Positions 36,798 through 51,170 are shown, counted from the stretch's first letter. The stretch is DNA of 64,000 nucleotides from an uncultured Candidatus Saccharibacteria bacterium (GCA_964593885.1 CAZQKK010000001.1:361929-425928), one strand, 5' to 3'. Notes: a model not told the origin generated them from the letters alone. Program-made: numbers and translations.

Positions 36798-38765
36798 ATG
36801 ATCACATCACCAGACATTATTGAACACATTGTGAGTACCGCAGAGCTCAGCAAAGCAGAAGCTGAGCGTCTTGAAGGCGCACTCTGGGAAGTGATTGGGA
36901 GGGAGATCTCCGTTGGTGAAGAAGTTGAAGTGCCGGGTCTCGGGCACTTTTTCACGGTGAAGTACCCTGGCCACGAGTCTGAATCTGGTGAAATTGGCCT
37001 TCCAACGGTTGAGCCAGAGTTTGAGCCGTCATCAGAGCTTGTTGGAGTGGTGAAGAAAGCCATGGAAGACCACGCAGAGCTGTTTGAGGAGGAGCATGGT
37101 GAGGGTGAACCAGATGAAGCGCCGCTCCGAGAGGTATCTCCTCCTGATCCTTCAGAGCCAGAAGCCGAAAAGCCTGTAAAGAAAGAGCGTCCTCTGGGGC
37201 GGGCCTCAACGGTAACCTACGTTGATATTTCAAAGCTGAAGGTTGAGAAGGATATTCTCTCACTCCTCCCACTTCCGCTCGCCCAAAAGTACAGCGCTGT
37301 CCCAATTGATCTGAAAGAAGGAGAGCTTACTGTTGCGATGATTAACCCTGAGGACTTCGATGCAGTGCAGCTGCTTCGCAAGGAGACAGGGCTCTCTATC
37401 AAGCCAGTGCTTACTTCAAGAGATGACCTCCAGTTTGTCCTTGACCAGTACACGGGTCTGCAAGCAGAGGTGCAAGAAGTTATTGCAAGCTCAGAGTTTG
37501 GCATTTCAAAGCAGGATTTGGCTGCAGCCAAAGAGGAGCAGGCAACCCTCGAGGAAGATAATGAGGATGCTCCAACTGCCAAGATTGTTGGTTCGCTCCT
37601 GAAACGGGCGGTAAAAGAGCGTGCTTCAGACATCCACATTGAGCCCTACGAGCACAAGGTGGTGGTGAGGTTCAGGATTGACGGCATCCTCATGGTGAGG
37701 GTTGAACTTCCTAAGGAGATCCAAGATGCCATGGCGGCACGTCTCAAAATCCTCGCAAACCTCAAGATTGACGAGCAACGTCTTCCGCAAGACGGTAGGT
37801 TCAGTATGAACCTGGACAGGAGGGAGGTAGACTTCCGTATCTCAACCATTCCGGTGGTATTTGGCGAGAAGGTGGTTATGCGTATCCTCGATAAACAGCA
37901 AGGAATCAGGGACCTTTCAGAGGTAGGACTCCAGGGAAGTGGCCTTGAAATTCTCAAGAAAAATATTGAGCGAAGCCACGGGATGATCTTGGTTACCGGA
38001 CCTACGGGATCGGGTAAAACTACCACGCTCTATGCAGTACTCGGGCGTCTCATGAAGCCAGATGTGAACATCCTCACCCTCGAGGATCCTGTTGAGTACC
38101 GCATTGAGAGCATCAACCAGAGCCAGGTGCACAACGATATTGGCTACAGCTTTGCAAACGGGCTTCGAGCAGTGGTAAGGCAAGACCCAGATGTGGTGAT
38201 GCTTGGAGAGATTAGGGATAAAGAGACAGCTGAAATGGCGGTGCAGGCTGCCCTTACTGGTCACGTTGTGCTTTCAACCCTCCACACCAACGATGCTGCG
38301 GGAGCCTTCCCAAGGTTGATTGATATGGGAATTGAGCCATTCCTGATCACTTCATCAATTCACACCGTTATCGCCCAACGTTTGGCACGAAAGTTAGACC
38401 CCGAACATCGCCAGGAGCGAAAACTCACCGGGGATGAGCTTGACGAGGTTGTGGCTGAGATTGAGAAGATGCCAGAAGCCGTGCAGAAGCAGCTGAAGGA
38501 CGAAGGGGTGGATCTCAAGAACCCTGTGGTCTACCAGCCAAAGGAGGAGAATGGGAGCAGTGGCTACATTGGGAGAATGGGAATCTTTGAAGTCCTCGAC
38601 ATGACTGAAAAGATTAGAGCCCACATTCTGGAGCGAAAGTCAGGCTCGATTATCAGGGATGAAGCGGTGAGTAACGGCATGCTGACCATGGTCCAAGATG
38701 GTATCGCAAAAGCTGTCACCGGGCAGATTAGCCTAGAAGAGGTCTGGCGAGTAACCAGAGAGTAG
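36798..38765 (+). CDS. pilB: Type IV pilus assembly ATPase PilB/GspE with an N-terminal HU/IHF-fold domain.
   Basis: SD GAGGGG before the ATG. Residues 1-90 align to HU (AELSKAEAERLE..VPGLGHFFTVK...). Then a T2SSE_N domain and the ATPase with Walker A GPTGSGKTT. Confidence 0.85.
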   Translation: MITSPDIIEHIVSTAELSKAEAERLEGALWEVIGREISVGEEVEVPGLGHFFTVKYPGHESESGEIGLPTVEPEFEPSSELVGVVKKAMEDHAELFEEEHGEGEPDEAPLREVSPPDPSEPEAEKPVKKERPLGRASTVTYVDISKLKVEKDILSLLPLPLAQKYSAVPIDLKEGELTVAMINPEDFDAVQLLRKETGLSIKPVLTSRDDLQFVLDQYTGLQAEVQEVIASSEFGISKQDLAAAKEEQATLEEDNEDAPTAKIVGSLLKRAVKERASDIHIEPYEHKVVVRFRIDGILMVRVELPKEIQDAMAARLKILANLKIDEQRLPQDGRFSMNLDRREVDFRISTIPVVFGEKVVMRILDKQQGIRDLSEVGLQGSGLEILKKNIERSHGMILVTGPTGSGKTTTLYAVLGRLMKPDVNILTLEDPVEYRIESINQSQVHNDIGYSFANGLRAVVRQDPDVVMLGEIRDKETAEMAVQAALTGHVVLSTLHTNDAAGAFPRLIDMGIEPFLITSSIHTVIAQRLARKLDPEHRQERKLTGDELDEVVAEIEKMPEAVQKQLKDEGVDLKNPVVYQPKEENGSSGYIGRMGIFEVLDMTEKIRAHILERKSGSIIRDEAVSNGMLTMVQDGIAKAVTGQISLEEVWRVTRE

Positions 38766-38770
38766 CCATC

Positions 38771-39973
38771 ATGCCAACATTCAAGTTTGTTTTCAAAGAT
38801 GGTGGGGTGAAGCCGGTGAAGGGCACGTTAGAGGCGCCATCGTACGCTGAGGCGCTCAGCCAGCTGCGCAAGCGTGACGGGATTATCGTTGAGCTAGCTG
38901 AGGCAAAATCAGGAGGGTTGAGCAGAATATTTGGCAAAAAAGGTCTCAACCTCAAAGAGAGGATCATCTTTACCGAGCAGCTTGCGGTAATGCTTAATGC
39001 TGGAATTACGCTACTCCAGGCACTGAAGAGTCTGGAGGAAGAAGCCCAAAACAAGAAGTCAAAACGTCTGTTTGGGGCACTTGCAACAGAGCTAGAGGGG
39101 GGAACTCCTTTCTCAAAGATTCTCGAGAAGTACCCTGAGTCATTCTCCGAGGTGTACTCACACATGGTGAAGTCTGCAGAGAAGAGTGGAAACCTCGCTG
39201 ATATCCTCCTGAAACTCACCGACCAGCAACGCAAAGAGTACGACCTCAAGGGTAAAGTGAAGGGAGCACTCATCTACCCGGCGGTAGTTTCGGTACTCCT
39301 GGTAGGAGTTATCACCTTGGTTATCACCTTCGTTATCCCAAGGCTGTCTAGTCTCTTCACTGAAACTGGTACCGCACTTCCGCTCAGTACCAGGATTGTC
39401 TTGGCACTCTCCAACTTCATGACAACCAAGTGGTACGTCCTTGTTATCATCATTGGTGGGATCATTTTTGGCCTCAAGGCGATGTACAAAACCTACCGGG
39501 GTAGGCGAATTCTAGATGGTATTAAGCTCAAAGTTCCGATTATTGGAGGCTTCACCAGTAAGGCTATCATCGCACGGTTTGCCCAGACCTTCAGCTTTCT
39601 CTCGCAGGCAGGGGTGCCGGTGCTCGAGATTTTTGAAACCCTCAAAGGGGTTATGGGTAATGCTATTTACGCAGATGAAATTGAGCGAATGTCTAGGGAA
39701 GTTGAGAACGGCACACCTCTCTCAACCTCAATTAGGAAGAGCAAGCACTTCCCAGCCATGGTGGGACAGCTGGTTAAGGTGGGGGAACAGTCAGGAGACC
39801 TGGCAGGGATGTTCAAGGTGCTAGGGAACTTCTTTGAAAAGGAGGTTGATACCATGGCCAAGAACCTCTCAACACTCTTGGAGCCAATCATCATGATTAT
39901 CATGGGTGTGGTAATTGGCTTCATCTTGATTGCCGTTCTCCAGCCAATCTATGGTTTAATTAATGCAGTCTAG
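38771..39973 (+). CDS. pilC: Type IV pilus inner-membrane platform protein PilC (GspF family).
   Basis: Two T2SSF repeats, three TMs, typical N-terminus MPTFKFVFKD. Confidence 0.9.
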   Translation: MPTFKFVFKDGGVKPVKGTLEAPSYAEALSQLRKRDGIIVELAEAKSGGLSRIFGKKGLNLKERIIFTEQLAVMLNAGITLLQALKSLEEEAQNKKSKRLFGALATELEGGTPFSKILEKYPESFSEVYSHMVKSAEKSGNLADILLKLTDQQRKEYDLKGKVKGALIYPAVVSVLLVGVITLVITFVIPRLSSLFTETGTALPLSTRIVLALSNFMTTKWYVLVIIIGGIIFGLKAMYKTYRGRRILDGIKLKVPIIGGFTSKAIIARFAQTFSFLSQAGVPVLEIFETLKGVMGNAIYADEIERMSREVENGTPLSTSIRKSKHFPAMVGQLVKVGEQSGDLAGMFKVLGNFFEKEVDTMAKNLSTLLEPIIMIIMGVVIGFILIAVLQPIYGLINAV

Positions 39974-39992
39974 CTAAACGGAGCACCAAAGG

Positions 39993-41021
39993 ATGGGACT
40001 CTTCCAGAAAACTGTTGTCGGGGTAGAAGCAATTGCCGCAGGGGTGCGGGTGGTTGAGGTTGAGCTTTCGCGTAGTCCCAGGGTGGTAAGCATTGGTGAA
40101 GCTCTCATTCCAGCTGAAGAACAACACCACGGCACCGGCTTGGATATTATCGCTATGGGGGGAAAGCTTGATGAGGCACTCACAGCCGCAAAACCTAAGC
40201 GAATTACTACACGCGATGCCTACCTCTCCGTTCCAGAAGATAAGGTTTTCAGGAAAATTCTCGAGATACCTGCCAGCGTAACTGATGCGGAACTTGCAGG
40301 GGTGGTGAGGTCTGAGGTCTCAAGCTACCTGCCTAGTGAGCTTGATACCATGGAAATTGATTTCCAGGTGCTCCCTCGTCGTGCCAACCAGGCAACTCAA
40401 CCTGAGCGAGATCCAAAAGAAAAGAAGCGTGAAGATAAAGGAGATAAGGATGAGAAGGAAGACAAAGAAGACAAAGAAGAGAAAGCACCTGCTCAGCCTC
40501 CACTTTACGTTTCGGTGGTTGCCGTTGATAAACAGGTTGTGCACGAGATCATTGCCCTCTGTGAGCATGCAAAACTGAGGCCTGTGAGCATTGATACCCG
40601 CCCAGCGGCTATTTCACGTGCCGTGGTGCCACCAAAAGATCAGAATGTTGCCATTGTGGTGGAGTGGCACGGGGGCGAAGCGATGGTTGCCGTGGTTGAG
40701 CGAGGTGTTGTTTGGGTGACAGGTATGACCAAAGCAGGCGAAGATACTGATGTTGCGGCTTCAGCAATTGCCGACGAAATTGAGCACGCGGTGAAGTTTT
40801 TCACCAATCGAACGGGAAGTAGCACCTCAATTTCGCAAGCCTACGTTGTCTCAGCCAACCCAGAGGCTGCAGAGCTTAGGAAGAAGCTCGAGAAGCTCAT
40901 GGATAGCGACATTGCCGTAGTTGAGGGGGTTCCTGTGGTACCTCTTCCTGGGGGAAGCGATGCCCGCTACAGCGCTGCTCTCGGTGCAGCTCTCTACTCG
41001 CTGTATAGTACCCTTGTATGA
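39993..41021 (+). CDS. pilM: Type IV pilus assembly protein PilM (actin-like).
   Basis: N-terminus LFQKTVVGVEAIAAGVRVVEV and a PilM-like fold; contains a K/D/E low-complexity insert. Confidence 0.75.
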   Translation: MGLFQKTVVGVEAIAAGVRVVEVELSRSPRVVSIGEALIPAEEQHHGTGLDIIAMGGKLDEALTAAKPKRITTRDAYLSVPEDKVFRKILEIPASVTDAELAGVVRSEVSSYLPSELDTMEIDFQVLPRRANQATQPERDPKEKKREDKGDKDEKEDKEDKEEKAPAQPPLYVSVVAVDKQVVHEIIALCEHAKLRPVSIDTRPAAISRAVVPPKDQNVAIVVEWHGGEAMVAVVERGVVWVTGMTKAGEDTDVAASAIADEIEHAVKFFTNRTGSSTSISQAYVVSANPEAAELRKKLEKLMDSDIAVVEGVPVVPLPGGSDARYSAALGAALYSLYSTLV

Positions 41022-41596
41022 AGCAGATAAACCTCCTCCCACCCGAACTTGCATCACAGCGTTCAAGGCAGCGCGCCGTTCCTGCACTAGTATTGGCTGT
41101 TCTGATGGCATCAGGAACCATCCTGCTTCCGTGGTGGATGCTCAGGGGAGTAGAGGCTTCGCTGGATGAGCAGATCGTTCACCAGCAGGAGGTGCTTGGG
41201 ATTAGTACAGGCACCGGAAAGGTAGTTGATGAGAGCTTTGAGGTACTTTCAGTGGGTGAGATTGGGGGTAAGGTAGCGGCACTCAACCAGCTGGCAGCAA
41301 GGGAGCTCTCTTGGTTAGACGTTCTGACTTCGGTAGGTAATTTGGTGCCAAAAGATATTACACTCTCTACCTACTCAGTTAGCACTAACCCAACCGACGT
41401 GAATATTAGGTTGGTAGGTGAAGCCCCCTCAAACTTGAGTTTTGCCACATTCGTAGAGTCTCTCAGGCAGAATAAAACAGTGTCAAAAGTGGTGGTTGAG
41501 GGCTTTCAGTTCTCACCAACTAAGGGCACGGTAAGCTTTGTGGTTCAGGTTTCAAGTCCAATCAAGAATTACCGGTACAGTGAGGTGGCAAAGTGA
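41018..41596 (+). CDS. pilN: Type IV pilus assembly protein PilN.
   Basis: MKQINLLPPEL hallmark and a single TM helix. Confidence 0.75.
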   Translation: MKQINLLPPELASQRSRQRAVPALVLAVLMASGTILLPWWMLRGVEASLDEQIVHQQEVLGISTGTGKVVDESFEVLSVGEIGGKVAALNQLAARELSWLDVLTSVGNLVPKDITLSTYSVSTNPTDVNIRLVGEAPSNLSFATFVESLRQNKTVSKVVVEGFQFSPTKGTVSFVVQVSSPIKNYRYSEVAK

Positions 41597-42231
41597 AGAA
41601 AATAGCACCAGCAGTAGTAGTGATTTTCGTTTTCTGTGTCGTTTTTGCTGGTGGCTTCTTTGGTCTGGTGTACCCTTCAATTAAGCCAATTGGGAGGAAG
41701 CTTTCAAAACTTGCGGCGTACAGTCAGCAATCAACAAAAGCGGTGGCTCCTAGCTCTCGGAGTGCTGAACTAGAGGCGCAACGTCAGCAACTTGAACTCG
41801 AGAAGGATAAGATTTCAAAGCTCCTTCCAGACGAGAGCAACGTGTACGATCTTTCTATCCAGATTGAGGCGTTGGCAAAGAGTACCGGGGTTACCATGAC
41901 ATCGGTAAGTCTGCTTCCAGCCGCTGAAACAACCGTAGCAAAGACAAAGAGCACCACGGCAATAGCTACGGTACAGGCGCCTCCAGCTGGTACCGCTACT
42001 TCGACAATTGCCGTCAGTCTCTCCGGGAGCTACGATGCCCTCAGGAGTTTCTTGGATGGCATAACCCAACTTGAGCGGTACATAGAGGTAGTAGATGTAT
42101 CCTTTGCATCGGGGACTTCAGGAGTGAGCATGACGCTCAGTGCTGTGGCATTCTCTGCTCAAAAGGCACCTGCGGCAACCCCTGCACCAGCTGCAACTTC
42201 CAAGCCAACAACAGGAGGGAAAGATGAGTAG
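41593..42231 (+). CDS. pilO: PilO-like pilus assembly protein.
   Basis: N-terminal TM, coiled-coil, translational coupling with pilN. Confidence 0.5.
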   Translation: MKKIAPAVVVIFVFCVVFAGGFFGLVYPSIKPIGRKLSKLAAYSQQSTKAVAPSSRSAELEAQRQQLELEKDKISKLLPDESNVYDLSIQIEALAKSTGVTMTSVSLLPAAETTVAKTKSTTAIATVQAPPAGTATSTIAVSLSGSYDALRSFLDGITQLERYIEVVDVSFASGTSGVSMTLSAVAFSAQKAPAATPAPAATSKPTTGGKDE

Positions 42232-42529
42232 CGTGAAACGTCAGGCAAAGAGGATTGCTCTCGTTGAGCCGATCAACTGGGTGCTACTCATCCTCTCACT
42301 CATGCTCTTGAGTGGTGCAACGGCAATTACCTGGATTGGTTTGCAGCCTGCTACCTATGAGACTGCCGTTACCAAAGAAGTCCAGGATGAGGTGCAGGCA
42401 TCCCTGGCTAAGCAAATTGATAGCCCAGAGATACCTACCTTAAATCTCAACAAGAAGAATAAGCGTCAGGGACCAGAGGTAACGGTAGATCCAAACAACA
42501 TTGGCAAAACCAATCCTTTCGTAAAGTAG
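42224..42529 (+). CDS. Small TM protein in the pilus operon (PilP-like or accessory).
   Basis: Strong SD AGGAGGG before the ATG at 42224; one TM helix. Confidence 0.4.
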   Translation: MSSVKRQAKRIALVEPINWVLLILSLMLLSGATAITWIGLQPATYETAVTKEVQDEVQASLAKQIDSPEIPTLNLNKKNKRQGPEVTVDPNNIGKTNPFVK

Positions 42530-42591: not shown

Positions 42592-43101
42592 TTAGGCTGC
42601 GGCAGGAGGCTCTGAAGAAACGGTATCCTCTGCTGGTACCTCTAGAGGCTGCTGAGGGCCTCCACCGCCTTCGTACACGCCGAGAGGGGATGGTGATGCG
42701 CTTGCGTCTGGGGTGCCAGCAGCGTTATTCAGGCGCTTCTTTACCTCCTCAATAATTTCTCCTGGGAGAACCTCAGATTTCACAACGTAGGCATCAGCTT
42801 GAGTCATGATCTTGTTGAGCTTCTCAATTTCCTGCACCAGGGCGGTGACAATAATGACAGGGATTTTGGCGGTTTCAGGGTTCTCTTTGAGGCTCTTCAA
42901 GACATCGAGGCCGTTCATCTTTGGCATCATGATGTCCAGGATGATGAGGGAGGGGTTGTACTCCTTCACAAACTCCAGGGCCTCTTCACCATTTCCAGCA
43001 TGTACAACGGTAAAACCCTCTTGCTTTAAGCGCTCAGTGTAGAGCTCTGAAAGGATGATGTCATCTTCTGCCAGGAGAATGGTTGTGCCTTCGTACGCCA
43101 T
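42592..43101 (-). CDS. Single-domain response regulator (CheY-like receiver) with disordered C-terminal tail.
   Basis: TILLAEDD...ILDIMMPKMNG...VIIVTA receiver motifs. Confidence 0.8.
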   Translation of the reverse strand: MAYEGTTILLAEDDIILSELYTERLKQEGFTVVHAGNGEEALEFVKEYNPSLIILDIMMPKMNGLDVLKSLKENPETAKIPVIIVTALVQEIEKLNKIMTQADAYVVKSEVLPGEIIEEVKKRLNNAAGTPDASASPSPLGVYEGGGGPQQPLEVPAEDTVSSEPPAAA

Positions 43102-43203
43102 AGGTGTGAGGTGCTGGTGAAATGTAACAGGTTCATTGTAGCATCGAAAGAATGACACGCAAGGACTGCGAGGTCTTGTGGAACGATGACCAGAGGTGGC
43201 TGA

Positions 43204-45411
43204 CTACGTAGCGAGAGACTTTTCAACCTCGAGGAGGGGTAGGGTGAAGGTAAAGGCGCTACCTTTGCCTGGGGTACTCTGCACCACAATGGAGCCACCC
43301 ATTCGCTCAACAATAGACTTGGTGATGTAGAGCCCAAGCCCCGTTCCGATGATCCCAACCGTCTCTTTTGAATCTGCTCGGTAGAACTTTTCAAAGAGGT
43401 GTGACATTTGCTCTTTATCCATCCCTAGGCCGTTATCGGCAACCGTAATGCTGACCATACGCTCCTTCTTGAGGAGCTCGGTGGTTACTGAAACTTCGCC
43501 ACCAGATCTGTTGTACTTAATGGCGTTACTCACCAGGTTAATGAGTACCTGCGAGGTCCTATCTGGGTCTGCCAGTACTGGTGGGAATGCAACTTCTGGC
43601 TTCTTGAACTTCAGGGTGATGTTCTTTTCCTGAGCGATGAACCTTAGCTGATCGATGGTGTCCTGGATAGACTTGATGCTATCGAGCTGCTGGGCGGTAA
43701 ACTTCATCTTGCCAGACTCAATGCGTGAAACTGAGAGGAGGTCTTTCACCAGCATCGAGAGGCGTTTTGCAGAAGAGAAACACTTGCTCAGGTAGTCGGT
43801 GGTTTGAGGATCTAGTCCCTTTCCGGCAATCTTCTCGTCTAGGATCATGCTGAGGTACCCCTCAATAGCCGAGATAGGGGTGAGGAGCTCGTGTGAGGCA
43901 ATGGAGACAAACTCGCTCTTCATCTGGTCGCCCTCGTAGAGCTTTGCTTTCTGGATAGACGAAATGGCCTGGTCTCCCACCAGCTCAAGGAGGGTGAGGT
44001 CTTGCTTACTGTAGCTCTCGTTGGACTGCTTGCTTGAGAGAAGGATGAGCCCAATTGGCTGGTCTTTGAGGATGAGTGGCATGGCCACGGCTACCTCAAG
44101 CTGTTCCAGCTTCTTGGCAACGGCAGACCTAATGGCGTGCTCCCGGATGAACTCGGCTTGCGTTTTGCCAGCCTCCAGCTTTCGCTTACCCTCAATGAGG
44201 AGTTTTTCATGGGCGAGTTCAGCAGCCAGGCTTTCAGTGAAGAGAATCTTTGGGTGGTTGCAGAAGTAGTGCATCACAAAGTCGCGTTCTTCCAGAATGA
44301 GCCTCTGGGTGGTTGAGTAGCCAATCTGTTTGATGCGCTTGATGGCTTGTTCGCCCCGGTCAGCCTGCTGGAAAACGTAGGTAACGGCATGGTGGAGGTG
44401 GAGGGCCTTGGCGGTTGTCTGCATCACTACCTCCAGGGCTTCGTCTAGGGCAATAACGTTGTTGAGCTTCTGGGAGAGCTCTTTAATGACCACCTCTTGC
44501 TCGTACTCTTTCTTGAAGAGCCACTTGTCGGTTCGCTCCGAGACCCAAACTTTTAGTGGCTGGAAGCTGTAGCCAATGATCAGAGCGGCAATGAGGTTAA
44601 CAATGAAAGAAGCACTGTTGAGGCTATCAAGCTGGAAGAGCTGGGCGAAGAGGGTAAGTACGGTGGCGTATACCACAAAGATGAAGGTAAGGAGCGATGC
44701 AAAAATTACCGTTCGCCTGATGAATAGCCTGATATCAAAGAGGTGCTGGGTTACGATGGCGTACGTGGTGAACCCAACGAAGATAACGGTGAAGAGAGGG
44801 CTGAGAGCGATACCCGCATTTGTTGAATTGAGGAGCGGGAGGAAGAGGTTGAAAATAATAATGAGCCCAAACATGAGGCCGAGTCCTAAGAGGAGGAGGA
44901 AGATTTGGTGGCGTTTTGTACCCCGTGATGAGAGGTACTTCTTGATGAGGACGTAGAGACCACTAAAGACGAGCCCTAGTGCGTAGGGGAGGAAGGCGGC
45001 AAAGCCAGGACCTGGGGTTGGGCTGTAGCTACCATCGGCTGCAGTGGTGAGACCAGTGAAGAGGTAGGGGCTCATCGTGATGAATCCTACAATCGCTCCA
45101 ATAACTAAGAGGAGCTGGTAGCGGGAGCTCTTGAGAGGCTGTCTCTGGTCTGGGAAGGTGATCACCAGCAGGTAGACAAAGAGGGATTGGGCTGTAGCGG
45201 TGAGCATCACGGCTCTCGTCCAGAAGAGGGCTACCTCGATGGTGGTAGCATGGAGCGAAAGGTATGTTGCGATAATCCAGGATGCAATGGAGAGGCAGAG
45301 GTAGAAGAAGAACTTGTTGGTGGCACTCTGCTTGTTAAAGATGAACACAACAAGTCCCATTGCCACATTTGCAATGGCAGCGATACTCGCAATGTAGAGC
45401 TCTAGTCCCAT
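43204..45411 (-). CDS. Sensor histidine kinase with N-terminal multi-TM sensor region.
   Basis: H-box SIASHELLTPISAIEGY; N-box LINLVSNAIKYN; G-boxes DNGLGMD and GTGLGLYI. Confidence 0.85.
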   Translation of the reverse strand: MGLELYIASIAAIANVAMGLVVFIFNKQSATNKFFFYLCLSIASWIIATYLSLHATTIEVALFWTRAVMLTATAQSLFVYLLVITFPDQRQPLKSSRYQLLLVIGAIVGFITMSPYLFTGLTTAADGSYSPTPGPGFAAFLPYALGLVFSGLYVLIKKYLSSRGTKRHQIFLLLLGLGLMFGLIIIFNLFLPLLNSTNAGIALSPLFTVIFVGFTTYAIVTQHLFDIRLFIRRTVIFASLLTFIFVVYATVLTLFAQLFQLDSLNSASFIVNLIAALIIGYSFQPLKVWVSERTDKWLFKKEYEQEVVIKELSQKLNNVIALDEALEVVMQTTAKALHLHHAVTYVFQQADRGEQAIKRIKQIGYSTTQRLILEERDFVMHYFCNHPKILFTESLAAELAHEKLLIEGKRKLEAGKTQAEFIREHAIRSAVAKKLEQLEVAVAMPLILKDQPIGLILLSSKQSNESYSKQDLTLLELVGDQAISSIQKAKLYEGDQMKSEFVSIASHELLTPISAIEGYLSMILDEKIAGKGLDPQTTDYLSKCFSSAKRLSMLVKDLLSVSRIESGKMKFTAQQLDSIKSIQDTIDQLRFIAQEKNITLKFKKPEVAFPPVLADPDRTSQVLINLVSNAIKYNRSGGEVSVTTELLKKERMVSITVADNGLGMDKEQMSHLFEKFYRADSKETVGIIGTGLGLYITKSIVERMGGSIVVQSTPGKGSAFTFTLPLLEVEKSLAT

Positions 45412-45443
45412 ATTGCCCCTGCTATGCTACTTCTCGTTCAAGT

Positions 45444-46598
45444 TTACAGTTTACCCAGGGTCTCCACAAATGTTTGGGTCATCGCCTGGCGCTCTTTAAC
45501 CTGTTCGTCGCTCATGAAGTCTGGGATGAGCAGCTCATCGAGGGAGAGGTGAATTCGCCCAGACACTACGGGGAGACCTAGGATGAGCCTCCTGGCGATG
45601 TATGCACCCGCAGCTCCGGTAAGGGTGGTGGCAGTGCCAAGCTGGGGAACTGAGGGAATGGTTCTGCCCATTTCAAGGAGGGACTTTTGCATCCTCGGGG
45701 TGCTGTTTTCGGCACTGATGATCTTGAGTGCCATCTTTACCCTGGTAGGTGGGTCAATGATGGGAGCTGAGAAGAGGCGTTGAGCCTCGTGCTCCTCAAG
45801 GGCGCCATGGAAGAGGGTGGTGATACCTTGGTCAAACCTTTCAATGTCAATCATGACGTTGTCGCCGTTATCGGTAACCATGACAACGGGGATCTTGCTC
45901 TCTCGGGCGTGGAGGCGGAGGTCAATTTTTATCTTGAGGTCATCTATCTCATCAAAGAGTACGTTGATTGGGTGCTCGCCCCCCAAGAATTCATTGATGT
46001 TTTCGGTGGTGATTCCTTCAGGGAAGACCTCAACTTGGGCAAAGGGGTTGAGCTCGTAGATTCTGCGCGCGGTGATTACTACCTTGCTAAGCCCTAGGTT
46101 AGCAACTGAGTTGTTGATCCTATTTAGGTTGGTGATGGCGAGGGTATCAAAGTCTGCAATTTTAATTACCTCAGAGCCGTTGGTGAGGGCGATAACAGTG
46201 GCAATGCTTGAGCCTACACTCATACCTGCAATACCAACTACACCTCTCTCGTACTGGTGTTGCTCGTCCTCAAGAATGATGTAGCGGTTTCTCGCAGTCC
46301 TCAAGCGGTAGAAAATCTCTTTTGGAGCAACCTTGATTGCCTTGAAGAGCCACGGGTAGATTACCCAAACGCCAGCGTCTTCTAGGGAAGGACCAAAATG
46401 CTCGGTAGTAAAGGCTGCAAAGTGGGATTCGTCGCGGTTGCGGCTAGCGGCGGTATGGGTGACCTCGTACAGCTCTTCTACCTGCTCCATGAGGTTGTCT
46501 ACCCGGTCAGAAACGCTGTACTGAGAGCATGCAGCATCAAAACCTGCCTTGTCAGTTGCTTGGATGAGGATGGGTTGGTAGAGCTTGCTGGTGTCCAT
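45444..46598 (-). CDS. ThiF/MoeB/E1-like adenylyltransferase-family protein with an approximately 110-aa N-terminal extra domain.
   Basis: GVVGIAGMSVGS Rossmann motif plus IADFDTLAITNLNRI and ELNPFAQVEV E1 signature blocks. Confidence 0.7.
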   Translation of the reverse strand: MDTSKLYQPILIQATDKAGFDAACSQYSVSDRVDNLMEQVEELYEVTHTAASRNRDESHFAAFTTEHFGPSLEDAGVWVIYPWLFKAIKVAPKEIFYRLRTARNRYIILEDEQHQYERGVVGIAGMSVGSSIATVIALTNGSEVIKIADFDTLAITNLNRINNSVANLGLSKVVITARRIYELNPFAQVEVFPEGITTENINEFLGGEHPINVLFDEIDDLKIKIDLRLHARESKIPVVMVTDNGDNVMIDIERFDQGITTLFHGALEEHEAQRLFSAPIIDPPTRVKMALKIISAENSTPRMQKSLLEMGRTIPSVPQLGTATTLTGAAGAYIARRLILGLPVVSGRIHLSLDELLIPDFMSDEQVKERQAMTQTFVETLGKL

Positions 46599-46600
46599 GG

Positions 46601-48127
46601 CTATGGTTTCTTTACGTACTGCACTTTGATCCGGCTTGGGAAGTGTTTGGGGTGGGCGTAGGTGTGAAACTTGACCCGCGGCTTTGCTCGCTTGGGGAAG
46701 GTATCGCTCAAGACCTTAAACTCAGCGTTCATCTCCCTGATTGTCTCGTAGATGATTTTCCTGATTCTCGTATGGGTTCTACGGTCAAGGTTTGCACCTT
46801 TCTTCAGCTCTAGTCTCAGGGAGAGGTACTGGTCATGGGAGCGATTGTACTCTGTTGCCAAGAGGAACTTTCCTGAAAGGTGGGGGAATACCTCATCGTG
46901 TTCAAGAGCCATCTTGATATTTTCTGGGTAGATGTTGAGTCCGTAGATGGTTGCAGCTGCATTTGTCCTACCAAAGAGGTACACGAAAGGTAGTTTCCAG
47001 TTGAGTGACTTTCTTGGGAGCTTGCTGGTGATGCTATTTTCGGTGTAGCCGTGTTTCTTGAGGATGGCCATTATCTCTCTGTGGGTGTAGGTTCCGCCTC
47101 TATCCTCAATGTTGTAGCGGGTGAGGGGTAGGCCAGCATCTGTGGTGAAGCAGAGCTCATTGTCTTCGGTGGTGGAAACCTGTTTCCAGAAAGGGTAGTA
47201 CTGGTGGAACGAAGGGACGGTTACCCTACCAAAGAGTTCCTTGCAGAGATCTTTATCATCACTTGCCAGTTTCCTAATCAGGATGCTCAAAGGGGTTTCA
47301 TGCCCAAGAATGGCGGCATCAGCCGAGCCGTAGGTGTTTACCGATGAGGTGAGGTAGCGTTCTTCTGGAACCCCAGCGCTCTTGTAGAGGTGGTTTCGCC
47401 ACTTCTCGCTGTAGGCTTCGCCCCCAGAAATGAAGTGCATATTGTATTTTTCCCAGTTGATACCGAGTATCTTTCCCTCATCAATAATATCTTTTGCCAG
47501 GGGTGGGTAGGCGCAGAGGACAATTTGGTCGAAGCTATCGCCAATTTTCTGAACAATCTTGAGGACATCATCTTTGTTGATACCAGGAGTAATGACGGTT
47601 AGCGGGTAGCCTTTCTTGGCGATGGTAATGCAGCTGTTGAGGGTGAAGGTTCCCGCAACGTAGAGACCCATGGAGTAGGCGTTGATGACGAGAGTTTTTT
47701 TGTGTTCGAGGTTAAAAAACTCTCTGAATAGAATCTCGTACGCGAGTGACGTTTCCGTTTCCAACTTGTCGCCCCGTGGCCAGAACTGTGGCTCACCAGA
47801 TGATCCTGAGCTTGTTGAGAGCATTACCGCATCAACCTCTCCATCCCAGCTGAGCTCTTTCAGGGTGTACTGCTTGATGTAGTTTTCTTTTGTGGTTGGA
47901 GGAACCTTCAGGAAGTCATCGTAGGTAACGATACTCTTTGGGTCTACTCCATTTCTTGCGAGGAAGTCTCGGTAGGCTGGAACCCGCTTAGCCATTGCAT
48001 GAAACAGATCAACTGCCTGTGCCTCTTCCTGTTTCTTGAGGTTAGCTGAACTACGCCAGCTGAATGACGAAATGAGGTTAATAACCTTGAGGTGTTTTTT
48101 CCGAGGAAGAGCATCTGAGAACGACAT
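46601..48127 (-). CDS. Adenylate-forming enzyme, PaaK/coenzyme-F390-synthetase-like (ANL superfamily).
   Basis: P-loop-like LSTSSGSSGEP and ISGGEAYSE motifs. Confidence 0.65.
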   Translation of the reverse strand: MSFSDALPRKKHLKVINLISSFSWRSSANLKKQEEAQAVDLFHAMAKRVPAYRDFLARNGVDPKSIVTYDDFLKVPPTTKENYIKQYTLKELSWDGEVDAVMLSTSSGSSGEPQFWPRGDKLETETSLAYEILFREFFNLEHKKTLVINAYSMGLYVAGTFTLNSCITIAKKGYPLTVITPGINKDDVLKIVQKIGDSFDQIVLCAYPPLAKDIIDEGKILGINWEKYNMHFISGGEAYSEKWRNHLYKSAGVPEERYLTSSVNTYGSADAAILGHETPLSILIRKLASDDKDLCKELFGRVTVPSFHQYYPFWKQVSTTEDNELCFTTDAGLPLTRYNIEDRGGTYTHREIMAILKKHGYTENSITSKLPRKSLNWKLPFVYLFGRTNAAATIYGLNIYPENIKMALEHDEVFPHLSGKFLLATEYNRSHDQYLSLRLELKKGANLDRRTHTRIRKIIYETIREMNAEFKVLSDTFPKRAKPRVKFHTYAHPKHFPSRIKVQYVKKP

Positions 48128-48182
48128 AGGTACATCATAGAATAATCTGTTCGCACCTGCTAGCCTGTGCTACTATTCTTTC

Positions 48183-49262
48183 ATGCATCGTCATAAGAAG
48201 TACCTCATTCTCGGTGGGGCAGGGTTAGTTGGGAGTACCTTCGCGCGTGCTGTTGCCAAGCACGGGGCAACTGTTGTGGTGGTTGACCTCCCAAGTAAGC
48301 TATCTGAGACTGAGTTCCCAAAAGTGGTGAAGAAGGTTGAAGCAGATATTCTCGTGCCCGGGTTTCTGGATAAGCTAGTGCAGAAAGAGGAGCCAAGCGT
48401 CATCCTCAATACGGTGAACCTGGCAACCATTTTCTCGGGGAACGAAGGTGAGGGCTACAACTCGCTCATCTCTTTCTACACCAGGTTGTACGAGGTACTC
48501 TCTCACGTAACCACACCACTCCACTACGTTCAGGTAGGAACCACAGGATCGGGTGGTCTTGGGTTCAACATTCCCTTCACCCACGGTGAGAACCTTGAGC
48601 ATCGGCCAATTATTCACAAGGCAGCATTTTCAGGGATCACATCACAGCTCTTGGTGATGCTCTCGCGCTCATTTCCAGAAGGAAACGTGAGGGTTTCAGA
48701 GTTAAAGCCTGGGCTTGCCATCTTTGACGACACCTTCCACCAATCAAAGATTGCAGGAGCTAACTGCGTCACCCTTGATGGCGGCGAGAGCGGGCACTAC
48801 ACCTACAACGAGGTTGCCCTCCTCATGAAAATGATGGGCTTCACCACCGCCTCAATGGTGGTAGAGAAAATCATCGGAATCATCACCAGTGAGAAGGGCT
48901 TCAGCCACGCCAACGGCTACGATCTCACTGCTGCCATGAACCGAGCAATTGTTTCTGAGGGGAGAAGCGATAGCGCTAAGCGGAAGAAGATTCTCGATGA
49001 GATGAAGAAACGACAGGGGACTTACAACGTGATTGCAACCGGTAACCTGGGACCACGTAGCATTACGGCAGCCCTCCTCCAGGCGTACATGCGTCTCAAC
49101 GGGGTAACGATGATGGATCCAGATCCATCGGTGAGGGCAACCCTCGCGTACCTGGCACAGAAGGATATCGCTCTCGCAGAGTACGTTGAGAAGTGCTGCC
49201 AGCAGCTCCCACCAATCGAGAGTTCTCGTGAGCAGCGAGAGCCATGGCAACTAGTGATGTAG
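48183..49262 (+). CDS. NAD(P)-binding Rossmann-fold protein, function unknown.
   Basis: ILGGAGLVGS dinucleotide-binding motif at the N-terminus. Confidence 0.5.
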   Translation: MHRHKKYLILGGAGLVGSTFARAVAKHGATVVVVDLPSKLSETEFPKVVKKVEADILVPGFLDKLVQKEEPSVILNTVNLATIFSGNEGEGYNSLISFYTRLYEVLSHVTTPLHYVQVGTTGSGGLGFNIPFTHGENLEHRPIIHKAAFSGITSQLLVMLSRSFPEGNVRVSELKPGLAIFDDTFHQSKIAGANCVTLDGGESGHYTYNEVALLMKMMGFTTASMVVEKIIGIITSEKGFSHANGYDLTAAMNRAIVSEGRSDSAKRKKILDEMKKRQGTYNVIATGNLGPRSITAALLQAYMRLNGVTMMDPDPSVRATLAYLAQKDIALAEYVEKCCQQLPPIESSREQREPWQLVM

Positions 49263-49263
49263 C

Positions 49264-49725
49264 ATGAAACGTTTCGACGACTTCGATCCAGAGGATCTCG
49301 AGGACCCAGATAGCAAGCGGCTAGGAAAAACCGGCCGCAAGCTGCTCAAACAGGCGCGCGCTGAAAACTTCAGGTGCCAGCACTGTGGGTTTGACGTACC
49401 TATGCAGGCGGTTGGCTCAACCCAGCGCAACCACTGCCCGCGCTGCCTCTGGTCTCGCCACGTGGATGAGGAGGTTGGTGATAGGCGTGCTACCTGCCTA
49501 GCTTCCATGGAGCCCATTGCACTTTCGCTCAAATCAAACGGGGGCGAACTGATGCTCGTGCACCGCTGCTGTGGGTGCGGGAAGGTGGGGAGGAACCGTC
49601 TTTCTGGTGATGACGATACCAAGGTGGTAGAGGAGGTATTTGGAGCATCGCTCCACACTCATGATTTGCCAGGCGGGATTGAGTACCTACGCGACGCCGA
49701 GGAGCTCAGGCGGCAGTTGGGCTAG
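49264..49725 (+). CDS. RNHCP domain-containing Cys-rich (Zn-binding) protein.
   Basis: RNHCPRCLWSRH motif plus additional CxxC pairs. Confidence 0.6.
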   Translation: MKRFDDFDPEDLEDPDSKRLGKTGRKLLKQARAENFRCQHCGFDVPMQAVGSTQRNHCPRCLWSRHVDEEVGDRRATCLASMEPIALSLKSNGGELMLVHRCCGCGKVGRNRLSGDDDTKVVEEVFGASLHTHDLPGGIEYLRDAEELRRQLG

Positions 49726-50139
49726 ATCTTGGTTTGCCTGTTCTAAAAGTTTTCTGGCTGAGGCGAAGGTGAGCTGCTGGTAGCATGGGGCAAAGGGCAG
49801 CCACTTAGCGTCCTTCACCTCTTCATCTTGGAGGGTCAGCTCTTTGGATGGGATGATGCCGAGGAAAAAGTCTACCTGCTTCACAATTGGCACACCTCCG
49901 TCGCCGGTAAACTGGTAGGTGACGCTGTACTCGCAGTTTGGAATGAGTTTACAGCTTTCAACACCAGTCTCTTCTTGGAGCTCTCTTAGAGCTGCACGCT
50001 TTGGGTCTTCACCATCTTCTGGGTGACCTTTGGGAAAATCCCAGTGTCCTCCAGTGAGGTTTTGGATGGTTAAAAAGTGAGCCTCTCCTGAGGCTTCTAG
50101 GTGGAAGGGAATGATTCCGTATGAGTGATCGTGCTGCAT
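49687..50139 (-). CDS. NUDIX hydrolase.
   Basis: Nudix box GHWDFPKGHPEDGEDPKRAALRELQEETGV. Confidence 0.8.
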   Translation of the reverse strand: MQHDHSYGIIPFHLEASGEAHFLTIQNLTGGHWDFPKGHPEDGEDPKRAALRELQEETGVESCKLIPNCEYSVTYQFTGDGGVPIVKQVDFFLGIIPSKELTLQDEEVKDAKWLPFAPCYQQLTFASARKLLEQANQDLAQLPPELLGVA

Positions 50140-50201: not shown

Positions 50202-51170
50202 ATGGCAGCAAAACGCTTGGTTACTGGCATCCGTCCAACTGGGGATATTCACCTTGGTAACTACTTTGCGGCCATTAAACCCACGGTGGCGCTGCAAGAT
50301 GCTTACGAGTGTTTCATTTTTGTTGCCGATCTCCATGCCCTCAACCAAGTTTCTGATCCAGTAGTCCTCAATAAGGCAATCTTGGAGATTACCAAGGCCT
50401 ACCTTGCCGCCGGTCTTAACCCAGAGAAGGTCCACCTCTTCCAGCAGTCAGCTCTCCCTCACCCAGAGCTTGCCTGGATGGTTGGTGCACAGGTTGGTAT
50501 TGGGGTGCTTGAGCGGGCACACGCTTTTAAAGACTCGGTTGCCAACGGGAGCGATATCAACTTTGGCCTATTTAGCTACCCTGTGCTCATGGCCGCAGAT
50601 ATCCTGATGTACCAGGCTGAGGTAGTACCTGTTGGGAAAGATCAACAGCAGCACGTTGAGTTTGCAAGAGACTGGGCTGAGCGGTTCAATAACCTGTACG
50701 GTCAGACATTTACCCTACCAAAAGCCATCCACCCTGAGGGCATTGAGACGGTACCCGGTATTGATGGGCGAAAGATGAGCAAGCGTTACGATAACGTTAT
50801 TGGCCTCTTTGATAGCGCTGAGGTACTCGAGAAGAAGATCATGAGAATTACCACAGACTCAAAGCGCCCAGAAGAGCCAAAGGATAGTAACGATGTTATC
50901 GCTCAGCTCTTCACCCTCGTTGCCTCAGAAGAGAGCTCACGCTCGTTTACCGAGAGGTACACCTCAGGCGGCATGGGCTACAAGGAGGCCAAGGAGCTCC
51001 TCTTGGGAGCTGTGGTTGAGTTCCTTCGCCCTATCCAGGAGCGCAAAGCCTCACTAGATCAGAACGAACAAGAGGTGAGAGATATCCTCCACAGAGGAGC
51101 AGAAGCGGCGCGCAAGGTGGCAGCTGAAACTATCGCTGAAGCTCGTCAACACTTGGGACTGGTAATCTAG
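50202..51170 (+). CDS. trpS: Tryptophan--tRNA ligase.
   Basis: Class I HIGH-type HLGN motif, KMSKR motif, and a length of about 322 aa. Confidence 0.9.
   Translation: MAAKRLVTGIRPTGDIHLGNYFAAIKPTVALQDAYECFIFVADLHALNQVSDPVVLNKAILEITKAYLAAGLNPEKVHLFQQSALPHPELAWMVGAQVGIGVLERAHAFKDSVANGSDINFGLFSYPVLMAADILMYQAEVVPVGKDQQQHVEFARDWAERFNNLYGQTFTLPKAIHPEGIETVPGIDGRKMSKRYDNVIGLFDSAEVLEKKIMRITTDSKRPEEPKDSNDVIAQLFTLVASEESSRSFTERYTSGGMGYKEAKELLLGAVVEFLRPIQERKASLDQNEQEVRDILHRGAEAARKVAAETIAEARQHLGLVI

Follow-up and report, generated by a model that had tools for sequence, protein, structure and literature searches.

A cassette pairing a PaaK-family ligase and a putative oxazolone-type cyclase with a membrane histidine kinase is widespread in Patescibacteria

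Kleetz et al. (2025, PMC12856293) described in Mycobacterium tuberculosis the TrzAS system (Rv1356c-Rv1355c), in which TrzA makes N-acyl-tryptophan and TrzS converts it to an N-acyl tryptazolone, by an ATP-dependent cyclisation followed by an O2-dependent desaturation. In the same study the D217A replacement in TrzS abolished cyclisation, and TrzS with an inactivated oxidase still yielded the saturated cyclised intermediate. The same chemistry is performed on N-acyl tyrosine by TyzB and TyzC of M. tuberculosis and by OxzB of Pseudoalteromonas rubra (PMC10404671, bioRxiv 10.1101/2020.06.11.147165). Here we analysed a locus within 64,000 nucleotides from an uncultured Candidatus Saccharibacteria bacterium (GCA_964593885.1 CAZQKK010000001.1:361929-425928; this whole stretch is hereafter the window). 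Its host belongs to the Patescibacteria (candidate phyla radiation, CPR), as do the named homologues of the window proteins. A PaaK-family ligase, a ThiF-like protein, a histidine kinase and a response regulator are encoded there by four minus-strand genes, which are a reduced copy of a cassette widespread in Patescibacteria. The oxazolone papers cited above make no mention of Patescibacteria, of a ligase partner or of a kinase, and a full-text literature search combining Patescibacteria, ThiF and nitroreductase found nothing.

We assigned domains with Pfam and NCBIfam, and searched AlphaFold2 (AF2) models by Foldseek against the PDB. The ThiF-like protein matched the NCBIfam model NF005901, 'Rv1355c family protein', with an E-value (E) of 1.9e-85 and 287.6 bits, its residues 16-369 aligning with positions 23-349 of the 722 of the model; the next ThiF-type NCBIfam model followed at E 4.7e-16 and TcdA at E 1.6e-14. 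The score lies below the 476-bit full-length cutoff because the window protein covers the N-terminal half of the model only. In addition, it shares 36% identity (E 3e-55) with a protein from a Mycolicibacterium plasmid that is annotated as Rv1355c family and, over residues 11-357, N-terminal domain included, 35% identity with a standalone Streptomyces homologue. Among 26 family members, residues G125, S127, G129, D149, R160, K172 and D219 are invariant and no Cys is. D219 aligns with the DxxD motif of the Mycolicibacterium protein and we infer that it is the equivalent of TrzS D217, the alignment having been made to the Rv1355c family protein and not to TrzS itself. By sequence, the ThiF-like protein is therefore a member of the Rv1355c/TrzS family of ATP-dependent cyclases, which convert N-acyl amino acids to oxazolones; we hold this assignment, together with a small-molecule substrate, with good confidence.

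The AF2 model of the protein has a predicted local distance difference test (pLDDT) score of 91.3, and its top PDB folds are AclA (9egb), ThiF, PaaA, MoeB and TcdA. The best of them, AclA from Tenacibaculum discolor (2025), was found with E 2.9e-12, a template modelling (TM) score of 0.80 on the target and 19% identity; it shares the ThiF fold but has only 250 aa and lacks the N-terminal domain. A housekeeping MoeB/ThiF/TcdA identity was rejected from the NCBIfam scores and from synteny. An earlier account of the locus, made from the DNA alone and hereafter called the sequence-only reading, had named a place in the MoeB/TcdA clades without conserved synteny as the outcome that would speak against a dedicated module; the scores point to the Rv1355c family, and gene order is kept in relatives as follows.

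We scanned one genome per species for relatives of the ThiF-like protein, which gave 423 loci, and counted neighbours in the best 80 of them, nearly all from Patescibacteria and from many lineages. The ligase gene adjoins the ThiF gene in 78 of these 80 loci, so that the pairing of two adenylating enzymes noticed in the sequence-only reading is indeed conserved. A tandem nitroreductase (NTR) flavin oxidase of ~350 aa comes after the ThiF gene in 67/80 loci; the NTR proteins match positions 374-713 of NF005901 as well as the Acg-family model, the two proteins of locus L023 reach 332 bits (ThiF) and 186 bits (NTR) to NF005901, and L052 and P0036 encode both halves as a fusion. At least 4 kb of sequence was available downstream in 59 loci, and 48 of these have a histidine kinase there in the same orientation; HisKA_7TM was present in all 10 kinases tested from relatives. 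Median junctions are 7 nt (ligase-ThiF), 6 nt (ThiF-oxidase) and 3 nt (oxidase-kinase), the last being 30 nt or less in 33/37 cases. This synteny and these short junctions indicate that the ligase-cyclase-oxidase-kinase unit is an operon conserved across a phylum-level radiation, and the arrangement of ligase, ThiF and kinase genes is far beyond chance. The usual order is a variable deaminating or reducing enzyme, the PaaK-family ligase, the TrzS-type cyclase, the Acg/TyzC-type flavin oxidase and the seven-transmembrane (7TM) kinase.

Compared with TrzAS, the putative cyclase of the window belongs to the same family, including most of the N-terminal extension, and keeps the Asp of the adenylation motif; in most relatives from Patescibacteria the flavin-oxidase half is likewise present, as the next gene or fused. 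It differs in that the window protein is standalone, with no oxidase in 64 kb, the N-acyltransferase TrzA is replaced by the ligase, a co-transcribed 7TM histidine kinase is added and the host is a CPR bacterium instead of an actinomycete. With TyzACB (Rv2336-2338c) and OxzAB the cassette would share the logic of an N-acyl aromatic amino acid, an ATP-dependent ThiF-type cyclisation and a nitroreductase-type desaturation, and in TyzB/TyzC cyclase and oxidase are separate proteins, as in the relatives of the window. However, TyzB has 318 aa, ~65 aa fewer than the window protein, TyzACB and OxzAB use an acyl-CoA donor and a FeeM/acyl-homoserine lactone (AHL)-synthase-like acyltransferase, and kinase linkage has not been reported for them.

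In other cassettes we observed two kinds of additional genes. A ~300-aa protein without Pfam match is encoded between oxidase and kinase in 6-7 loci (L031, L038, L040, L041, L058, L059; for example L059 12145-13062), with junctions of a few nt. Genes for a DsbD-like membrane protein and thioredoxin/AhpC-like proteins come after the kinase in L023 (14405-16349) and also in L014, L030 and L054.

In the kinase of the window, Pfam recognised HisKA_7TM (residues 12-227, E 2e-18), HisKA (2.5e-16), HATPase_c (1.6e-30) and a weak GAF domain, and hydrophobic segments extend to residue 286. The response regulator has a Response_reg domain (residues 27-129, E 9e-23) followed by a Pro/Ala-rich tail, without DNA-binding output domain, and its sequence shows EDD...LDIMMP...T...K, including the phospho-acceptor Asp. 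Kinase and receiver are thus a two-component system with no output domain.

We then compared the window with locus L082, which carries a different cassette, oxidase included, in the same slot, and is much closer to the window than L001, L085 and L086. Identity between the two is 91% for DnaB, 92% for GroEL, 80% for TrpS, 84% for the RNHCP protein, 99% for the receiver, 90% for the kinase core and 83% for the kinase GAF part, whereas it is 29% for the kinase membrane domain (7TM), 32% for the ThiF-like protein and 38% for the ligase. Measured in sliding windows of 25 residues, kinase identity is 16-45% up to residue ~275 and mostly 96-100% from residue 290. The step falls at residues 280-290, just past the last hydrophobic segment, which places the breakpoint at ~44,540-44,600 of the window; on the opposite side identity recovers within the NAD-binding gene. 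The cassette type of the window recurs in L001, L085 and L086, which are more distant, with 7TM identities of 50-62%. These comparisons show that the enzymes and the membrane domain of the kinase were exchanged as one block between very close relatives. Over 1766 locus pairs, which are not phylogenetically independent, 7TM identity correlates with ThiF and ligase identity (Spearman 0.37 and 0.34), when kinase-core identity does not (0.05 and 0.02). The link to a histidine kinase put forward in the sequence-only reading is borne out by the operonic junctions and by this co-inheritance of the enzymes with the sensor domain, and the joint replacement suggests an as yet undescribed signal-and-receptor pair.

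Two further observations concern this slot. The receiver domain (window 42760-43101) is the best-conserved protein of the neighbourhood, with 81-99% identity in relatives against 68-91% for DnaB and 52-80% for TrpS. In L083 (500-9107) the slot is occupied by a third cassette type, in which the NAD-binding gene is divergent from a gene for an MFS transporter, and a short ThiF protein (257 aa), a ligase, a separate 7TM open reading frame (ORF), a kinase and a regulator are encoded in reversed order.

The ligase had no Pfam match. NCBIfam PaaK models aligned with its N-terminal half alone (E 6e-13), and their 47-48 bits remain far below the equivalog cutoffs of 646-700 for a PaaK orthologue. The best PDB sequence match was 4r1l (E 7e-10). 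Its AF2 model (pLDDT 88.5) retrieved BT_0428 (E 7e-23) and PaaK1/2 (E 1e-20 to 7e-23), with TM scores of 0.62-0.73 to BT_0428/PaaK, then 2-hydroxyisobutyryl-CoA ligase (HCL), ClxA and, lower down, JAR1. Conserved motifs are the SSGSSG P-loop, YGSADA and a near-C-terminal K501. With this two-domain fold, P-loop and C-terminal Lys, the ligase is a PaaK-family ANL enzyme. A GH3 amido synthetase was rejected, JAR1 being only at rank 33 in the fold search and no GH3 Pfam match being found. ClxA, which has the PaaK fold, was crystallised in complex with an aryl acid and with its adenylate, and we take it to form an amide and not a CoA thioester. A homologue 41% identical to the ligase stands alone, without ThiF, between the adenylate kinase and secDF genes of Pseudodesulfovibrio mercurii (L081, 10001-11503), and the ligase family thus reaches beyond CPR and beyond the cassette.

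The gene directly upstream of the ligase varies between lineages. It encodes an ELFV-type amino-acid dehydrogenase in 17 loci (291 bits to tryptophan dehydrogenase ScyB and ~80 bits to glutamate dehydrogenases), an aromatic amino-acid ammonia-lyase in 9 loci (602 bits to flexirubin tyrosine ammonia-lyase FlxA and 470 to HutH), a HisC-like aminotransferase in 3 loci (histidinol-phosphate transaminase model, hisC) and, as in the window, a divergent NAD-binding protein with PF27054 in 5 loci. Each of the four yields a carboxylic acid from an aromatic amino acid or its keto acid, and such an acid is what a PaaK-family ligase would naturally use; they point to an aromatic acid as the substrate of the ligase.

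The NAD-binding protein gave an N-terminal Epimerase match (Pfam, E 1e-8), and nearly all 79 representatives of its family (90% identity clusters) carry PF27054, 'Beta_methylindole_red_C'. From this name we infer a relationship to Ind2. In indolmycin synthesis Ind2 is an NADH-dependent reductase that converts 3-methyl-indolepyruvate to indolmycenic acid, and Ind3 and Ind6 couple the hydroxy acid ATP-dependently into an oxazolinone (PMC8246080). The window would thus resemble that route by a ketoreductase for an indolepyruvate-type acid paired with an ATP-dependent coupling enzyme; moreover, indolmycin targets tryptophanyl-tRNA synthetase (TrpRS), and the TrpS gene stands beside the module. The differences are that no Ind1, Ind4, Ind5, Ind6 or Ind7 homologues are found at the window and that the indolmycin route has no ThiF-like enzyme. 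Ind3 itself is presumably PaaK-like.

The sequence-only reading had placed both the NAD-binding and the RNHCP gene in the module, and only the first half of this holds. The NAD-binding gene is always divergent beside the ligase in those 5/80 loci, which supports its membership in the sub-lineage of the window; this arrangement is seen in L001, L012, L020, L044, L066, L082, L083 and L085. By contrast, the RNHCP gene (PF12647, E 2e-32) is close to the cluster in only 2/80 loci, and in L082 and L083, as in the window, it stands in a conserved RNHCP-NUDIX-TrpS-DnaB block, so that it is probably a member of this housekeeping block and outside the module. We ruled out, as a simple rule, that the NAD-binding protein substitutes for the oxidase, because L012 and L082 carry both. 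In the non-CPR contig JBPMDV010000189.1 (L084, 8001-9978), the gene for an NAD-binding homologue and one for tryptophan 2,3-dioxygenase overlap at the start of the latter.

Taken together, the best explanation would be a variant of the oxazolone-type pathway, with the co-inherited kinase probably sensing its product; we consider the chances for and against it to be about equal. In the window, the divergent NAD-dependent, Ind2-like reductase would convert an arylpyruvate to an aryl-2-hydroxy acid; in other lineages a tryptophan-dehydrogenase-like, tyrosine-ammonia-lyase-like or HisC-like enzyme would supply the acid. The ligase would adenylate it and form an N-acyl amino acid by coupling it to an amino acid, thereby standing in for the acyl-CoA-dependent N-acyltransferase (OxzA/TyzA/TrzA). 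This coupling role could equally well hold or fail. To our knowledge most CPR genomes lack CoA biosynthesis, which makes a CoA-independent ligase in place of an acyltransferase plausible. The ThiF-like enzyme would then adenylate that N-acyl amino acid's carboxylate, and the amide oxygen would close the oxazol-5(4H)-one ring, as with OxzB, TyzB and TrzS; without oxidase the product of the window may stay saturated or be ring-closed differently. This small, probably membrane-permeant product may be perceived by the membrane domain of the kinase, leading to phosphorylation of the receiver-only regulator. That the kinase senses the pathway product is our tentative view, with the balance somewhat against it.

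Synthase-receptor loci with co-diversifying specificity are known in agrBDCA, comQXPA and cqsA/cqsS. The likeness to them would be in logic only: synthesis genes lie beside a polytopic membrane kinase, and the variable block consists of the synthase genes and the membrane sensor, the cytoplasmic part of the kinase and the regulator being nearly identical. Neither synthases nor sensors are homologous, and the signal of the window would be a heterocyclised acyl amino acid and not a peptide, an AHL or a hydroxyketone. By this analogy, Patescibacteria may carry a polymorphic, pherotype-like communication. Ligase and TrzS-type cyclase, with the oxidase or without it, would produce from aromatic amino acids heterocyclised acyl amino acids that differ between lineages, and the 7TM domain of the same cassette would read them. 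Signalling would pass through the CheY-like regulator, which hardly varies, and possibly on to the type IV pilus with which these episymbionts contact their hosts; as cassette and sensor are exchanged together, different signal types would arise at a single chromosomal slot. This wider proposal is speculative, and we think it rather doubtful.

Several points weigh against a sensed oxazolone-type product. The flavin oxidase is the partner of the cyclase in every characterised oxazolone system and is absent from the 64-kb window, so the usual unsaturated oxazolone cannot be what this copy makes. Neither is there an N-acyltransferase, and the ligase, instead of forming an amide, could simply make a CoA thioester. 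Its substrate is deduced from neighbouring genes only, present in 40/76 loci, and the meaning of PF27054 from the family name alone. Concerning the sensor, such domains generally change more rapidly than kinase cores do, recombination could have brought the sensor domain along simply because it lies next to the enzymes, and we found one sharp swap only, plus the third cassette type of L083. The dependence between the locus pairs also has to be kept in mind, as well as the enzymes of L004/L006 and L010/L023, which are 68-86% identical with 7TM domains only 39-41% identical. Finally, the regulator has no output domain.

A first alternative is that the product is a metabolite but not a signal, either a lipid-like oxazolone of the envelope, as suggested for mycobacteria, or an antibiotic against the host or competitors, such as an indolmycin-like TrpRS inhibitor, and that the kinase regulates the pathway or is merely co-transcribed. 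The enzymology would be the same as in the pathway proposed above. For the known oxazolones, functions in stress and against other microbes have been proposed, TrpS is within 10 kb in 14/80 loci and the L083 cassette carries an MFS exporter. However, this alternative leaves unexplained why the breakpoint lies exactly at the membrane/cytoplasm boundary of the kinase and why the identity of the enzymes follows that of the sensor instead of the kinase core; moreover, since the regulator is receiver-only, direct transcriptional control of the operon is unlikely. We regard it as unlikely, although a serious competitor of the sensed-product pathway.

Much less probable is a salvage or catabolic route for aromatic amino acids, in which the deaminating enzyme and an aryl-acid CoA ligase would feed aryl-CoA metabolism and the ThiF-like protein would have an unrelated role, such as TcdA-like tRNA modification. 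Indeed, the best fold matches of the ligase are aryl-acetate CoA ligases (BT_0428, PaaK), a sequence search of the PDB with the ThiF domain ranks TcdA first (E 5.5e-12) and the module sits among housekeeping genes (TrpS, DnaB). Nevertheless, the TrzS-family match is better than the TcdA match by 70 orders of magnitude, most loci show translational coupling of the ligase, ThiF and NTR genes, and we found no IOR or other CoA-dependent downstream enzymes in the neighbourhoods. The lack of CoA biosynthesis in most CPR and the solitary Pseudodesulfovibrio ligase also argue against it.

We also considered that the window copy is a decaying remnant, in which the oxidase has been lost and the ligase and cyclase, without functional product, persist only because they are linked to the kinase. 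Among the ORFs of the 64-kb window there is no homologue of the nitroreductase, of the ELFV enzyme or of the aminotransferase, whereas the closest relative, L082, has an NTR gene; no nitroreductase remnant is present in the gap between the ThiF and kinase genes, and no acyltransferase is encoded in the 42.1-52.6 kb region, where all genes were assigned. However, the oxidase-less arrangement is found in the same slot, between the pilus operon and TrpS-DnaB, in L001, L085 and L086, whose ThiF proteins are 59-74% and ligases 61-67% identical to those of the window, with ATP-binding residues, ligase motifs and ORFs intact, which indicates a maintained variant and not debris. L020 and L066 (~40% identical) likewise lack NTR. 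In addition, the Streptomyces homologue mentioned above, a 388-aa standalone protein with the N-terminal domain encoded on a linear plasmid (L087, 6899-8697), is encoded by a gene that overlaps one for a GNAT, and there is no flavin oxidase; versions lacking the oxidase thus also occur with a classical acyltransferase partner. A remnant is therefore very improbable.

There remains the question of peptides. The sequence-only reading had noticed an extra N-terminal domain of ~110 aa on the E1-like protein, and PF00899 begins at residue 107, leaving an extension of ~105 aa. It had likened this domain to the peptide clamp of MccB/PaaA-type enzymes, and MccB (microcin C7) and PaaA (pantocin A) indeed combine a ThiF/E1 adenylation fold with an extra N-terminal domain; the window enzyme, like them, is expected to cyclise after adenylation and not to form a thioester. 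Foldseek aligned MccB over 340-350 columns, beyond the E1 core, and PaaA with E 1.6e-9; however, the MccB alignments have a root-mean-square deviation of 10-11 A and TM scores of 0.42-0.46, and the profile of the N-domain found nothing in the PDB at E < 0.1, including no MccB, PaaA or RRE protein. Its predicted order is strand-helix-strand-helix-helix-helix-strand-strand, which differs from the three strands followed by three helices of the MccB clamp. The extension is shared with the Streptomyces homologue and with most of the Rv1355c model, and is thus a feature of the small-molecule Rv1355c/TrzS family, which leaves the clamp analogy unsupported, though the two domains might share a remote origin. 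The earlier idea of a small-molecule or peptide module stands for its small-molecule part, by family and synteny, and its peptide or protein C-terminal modification does not, as the nearest family acts on N-acyl amino acids and no precursor or ubiquitin-like ORF was found. The absence of a ubiquitin-like or GG-ended small ORF, seen by eye in the sequence-only reading, agrees with our small-ORF search, which detected no free-standing ORF of at least 20 aa in any intergenic gap of the cluster. An E1-like enzyme adenylating the C-terminus of a ribosomal peptide or small protein, MccB/PaaA-like or ubiquitin-like, is the least probable alternative and hardly tenable, there being no room for a precursor gene, no invariant Cys, no ubiquitin-like, E2 or JAB genes in the neighbourhood, and only Rossmann-level matches to the CBASS E1-E2 models of PADLOC (best E 6.5e-7, 27 bits).

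The features of the locus are collected in Table 1. The ORF coordinates confirm four closely spaced minus-strand genes divergent from the NAD-binding and RNHCP genes. Of the gaps given earlier as 3, 32 and 102 nt, the last two (ThiF-kinase and kinase-regulator) were found again, the latter being 45 nt with the GTG start, and the first (ligase-ThiF) is 2 nt. Promoter and terminator scans of the locus remained at or below shuffle expectation. A weak sigma-70-like match on the plus strand (48115-48143), near the divergent spacer, is no evidence of a promoter, since promoter-like matches in the region are fewer than expected from shuffles.

Table 1. Genes, kinase parts and divergent spacer of the locus, in window coordinates.
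Feature	Position	Strand	Remarks
PaaK-family (ANL) adenylating ligase	46601-48127	-	508 aa; first gene of operon
ThiF-like enzyme	45444-46598	-	384 aa; without flavin-oxidase domain
Histidine kinase	43204-45411	-	735 aa
Kinase membrane sensor part, residues 1 to ~280	44575-45411	-	HisKA_7TM and two more hydrophobic segments
Kinase cytoplasmic part	43204-44574	-	GAF-like, HisKA (H-box SHELLTP), HATPase_c
Receiver-only response regulator	42592-43158	-	188 aa from GTG; probable ATG at 43101, giving 169 aa
Divergent spacer, ligase / NAD-binding gene	48128-48182		55 nt
NAD-binding SDR-like protein	48183-49262	+	359 aa
RNHCP zinc-finger gene	49264-49725	+	153 aa

The locus is flanked by a type IV pilus operon on one side and by NUDIX, TrpS, DnaB and GroEL genes on the other. 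The pilus operon (window 36798-42529; pilB, pilC, pilM, pilN, pilO and a 129-aa ORF) is convergent with the response-regulator gene, and the same convergence is seen in L001, L082, L085 and L086; the position of a CheY-like regulator beside them may be a clue to the kinase's output. The NUDIX gene (window 49687-50139, minus strand) shares 39 nt with the RNHCP gene at the 3' end of the latter. TrpS (window 50202-51170) lies within 10 kb of the ThiF gene in the 14 loci counted above, including L016, L022, L027, L043, L045, L051, L053, L058, L059, L061, L062 and L073, mostly downstream of the kinase on the same strand and, in the lineage of the window, on the other side of the module. Given the tryptophan-related enzymes and the TrpRS-targeting indolmycin, this proximity is suggestive, and it may be inherited synteny.

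Oxazolone synthetases were found between 2020 and 2025 in proteobacteria and mycobacteria, and what their products do in the cell is still unresolved. The same cyclase family is present in at least 423 species-level genomes, the best 80 being nearly all from Patescibacteria, whose minimal metabolism would not let one expect secondary-metabolite genes. New here are a different first enzyme, namely an ATP-dependent ligase apparently fed by aromatic amino-acid deamination, an optional oxidase, a coupled membrane sensor kinase and CPR hosts. These assignments also set right two labels of routine annotation, 'ThiF family adenylyltransferase' and 'phenylacetate-CoA ligase family protein'. The joint swap of enzymes and sensor domain amounts to a natural experiment, and it points to a relationship of ligand and receptor. 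If this relationship is true, oxazolones would gain a function, in signalling, and the mostly uncultured CPR bacteria would gain a first candidate for a cell-cell or symbiont-host signalling system.

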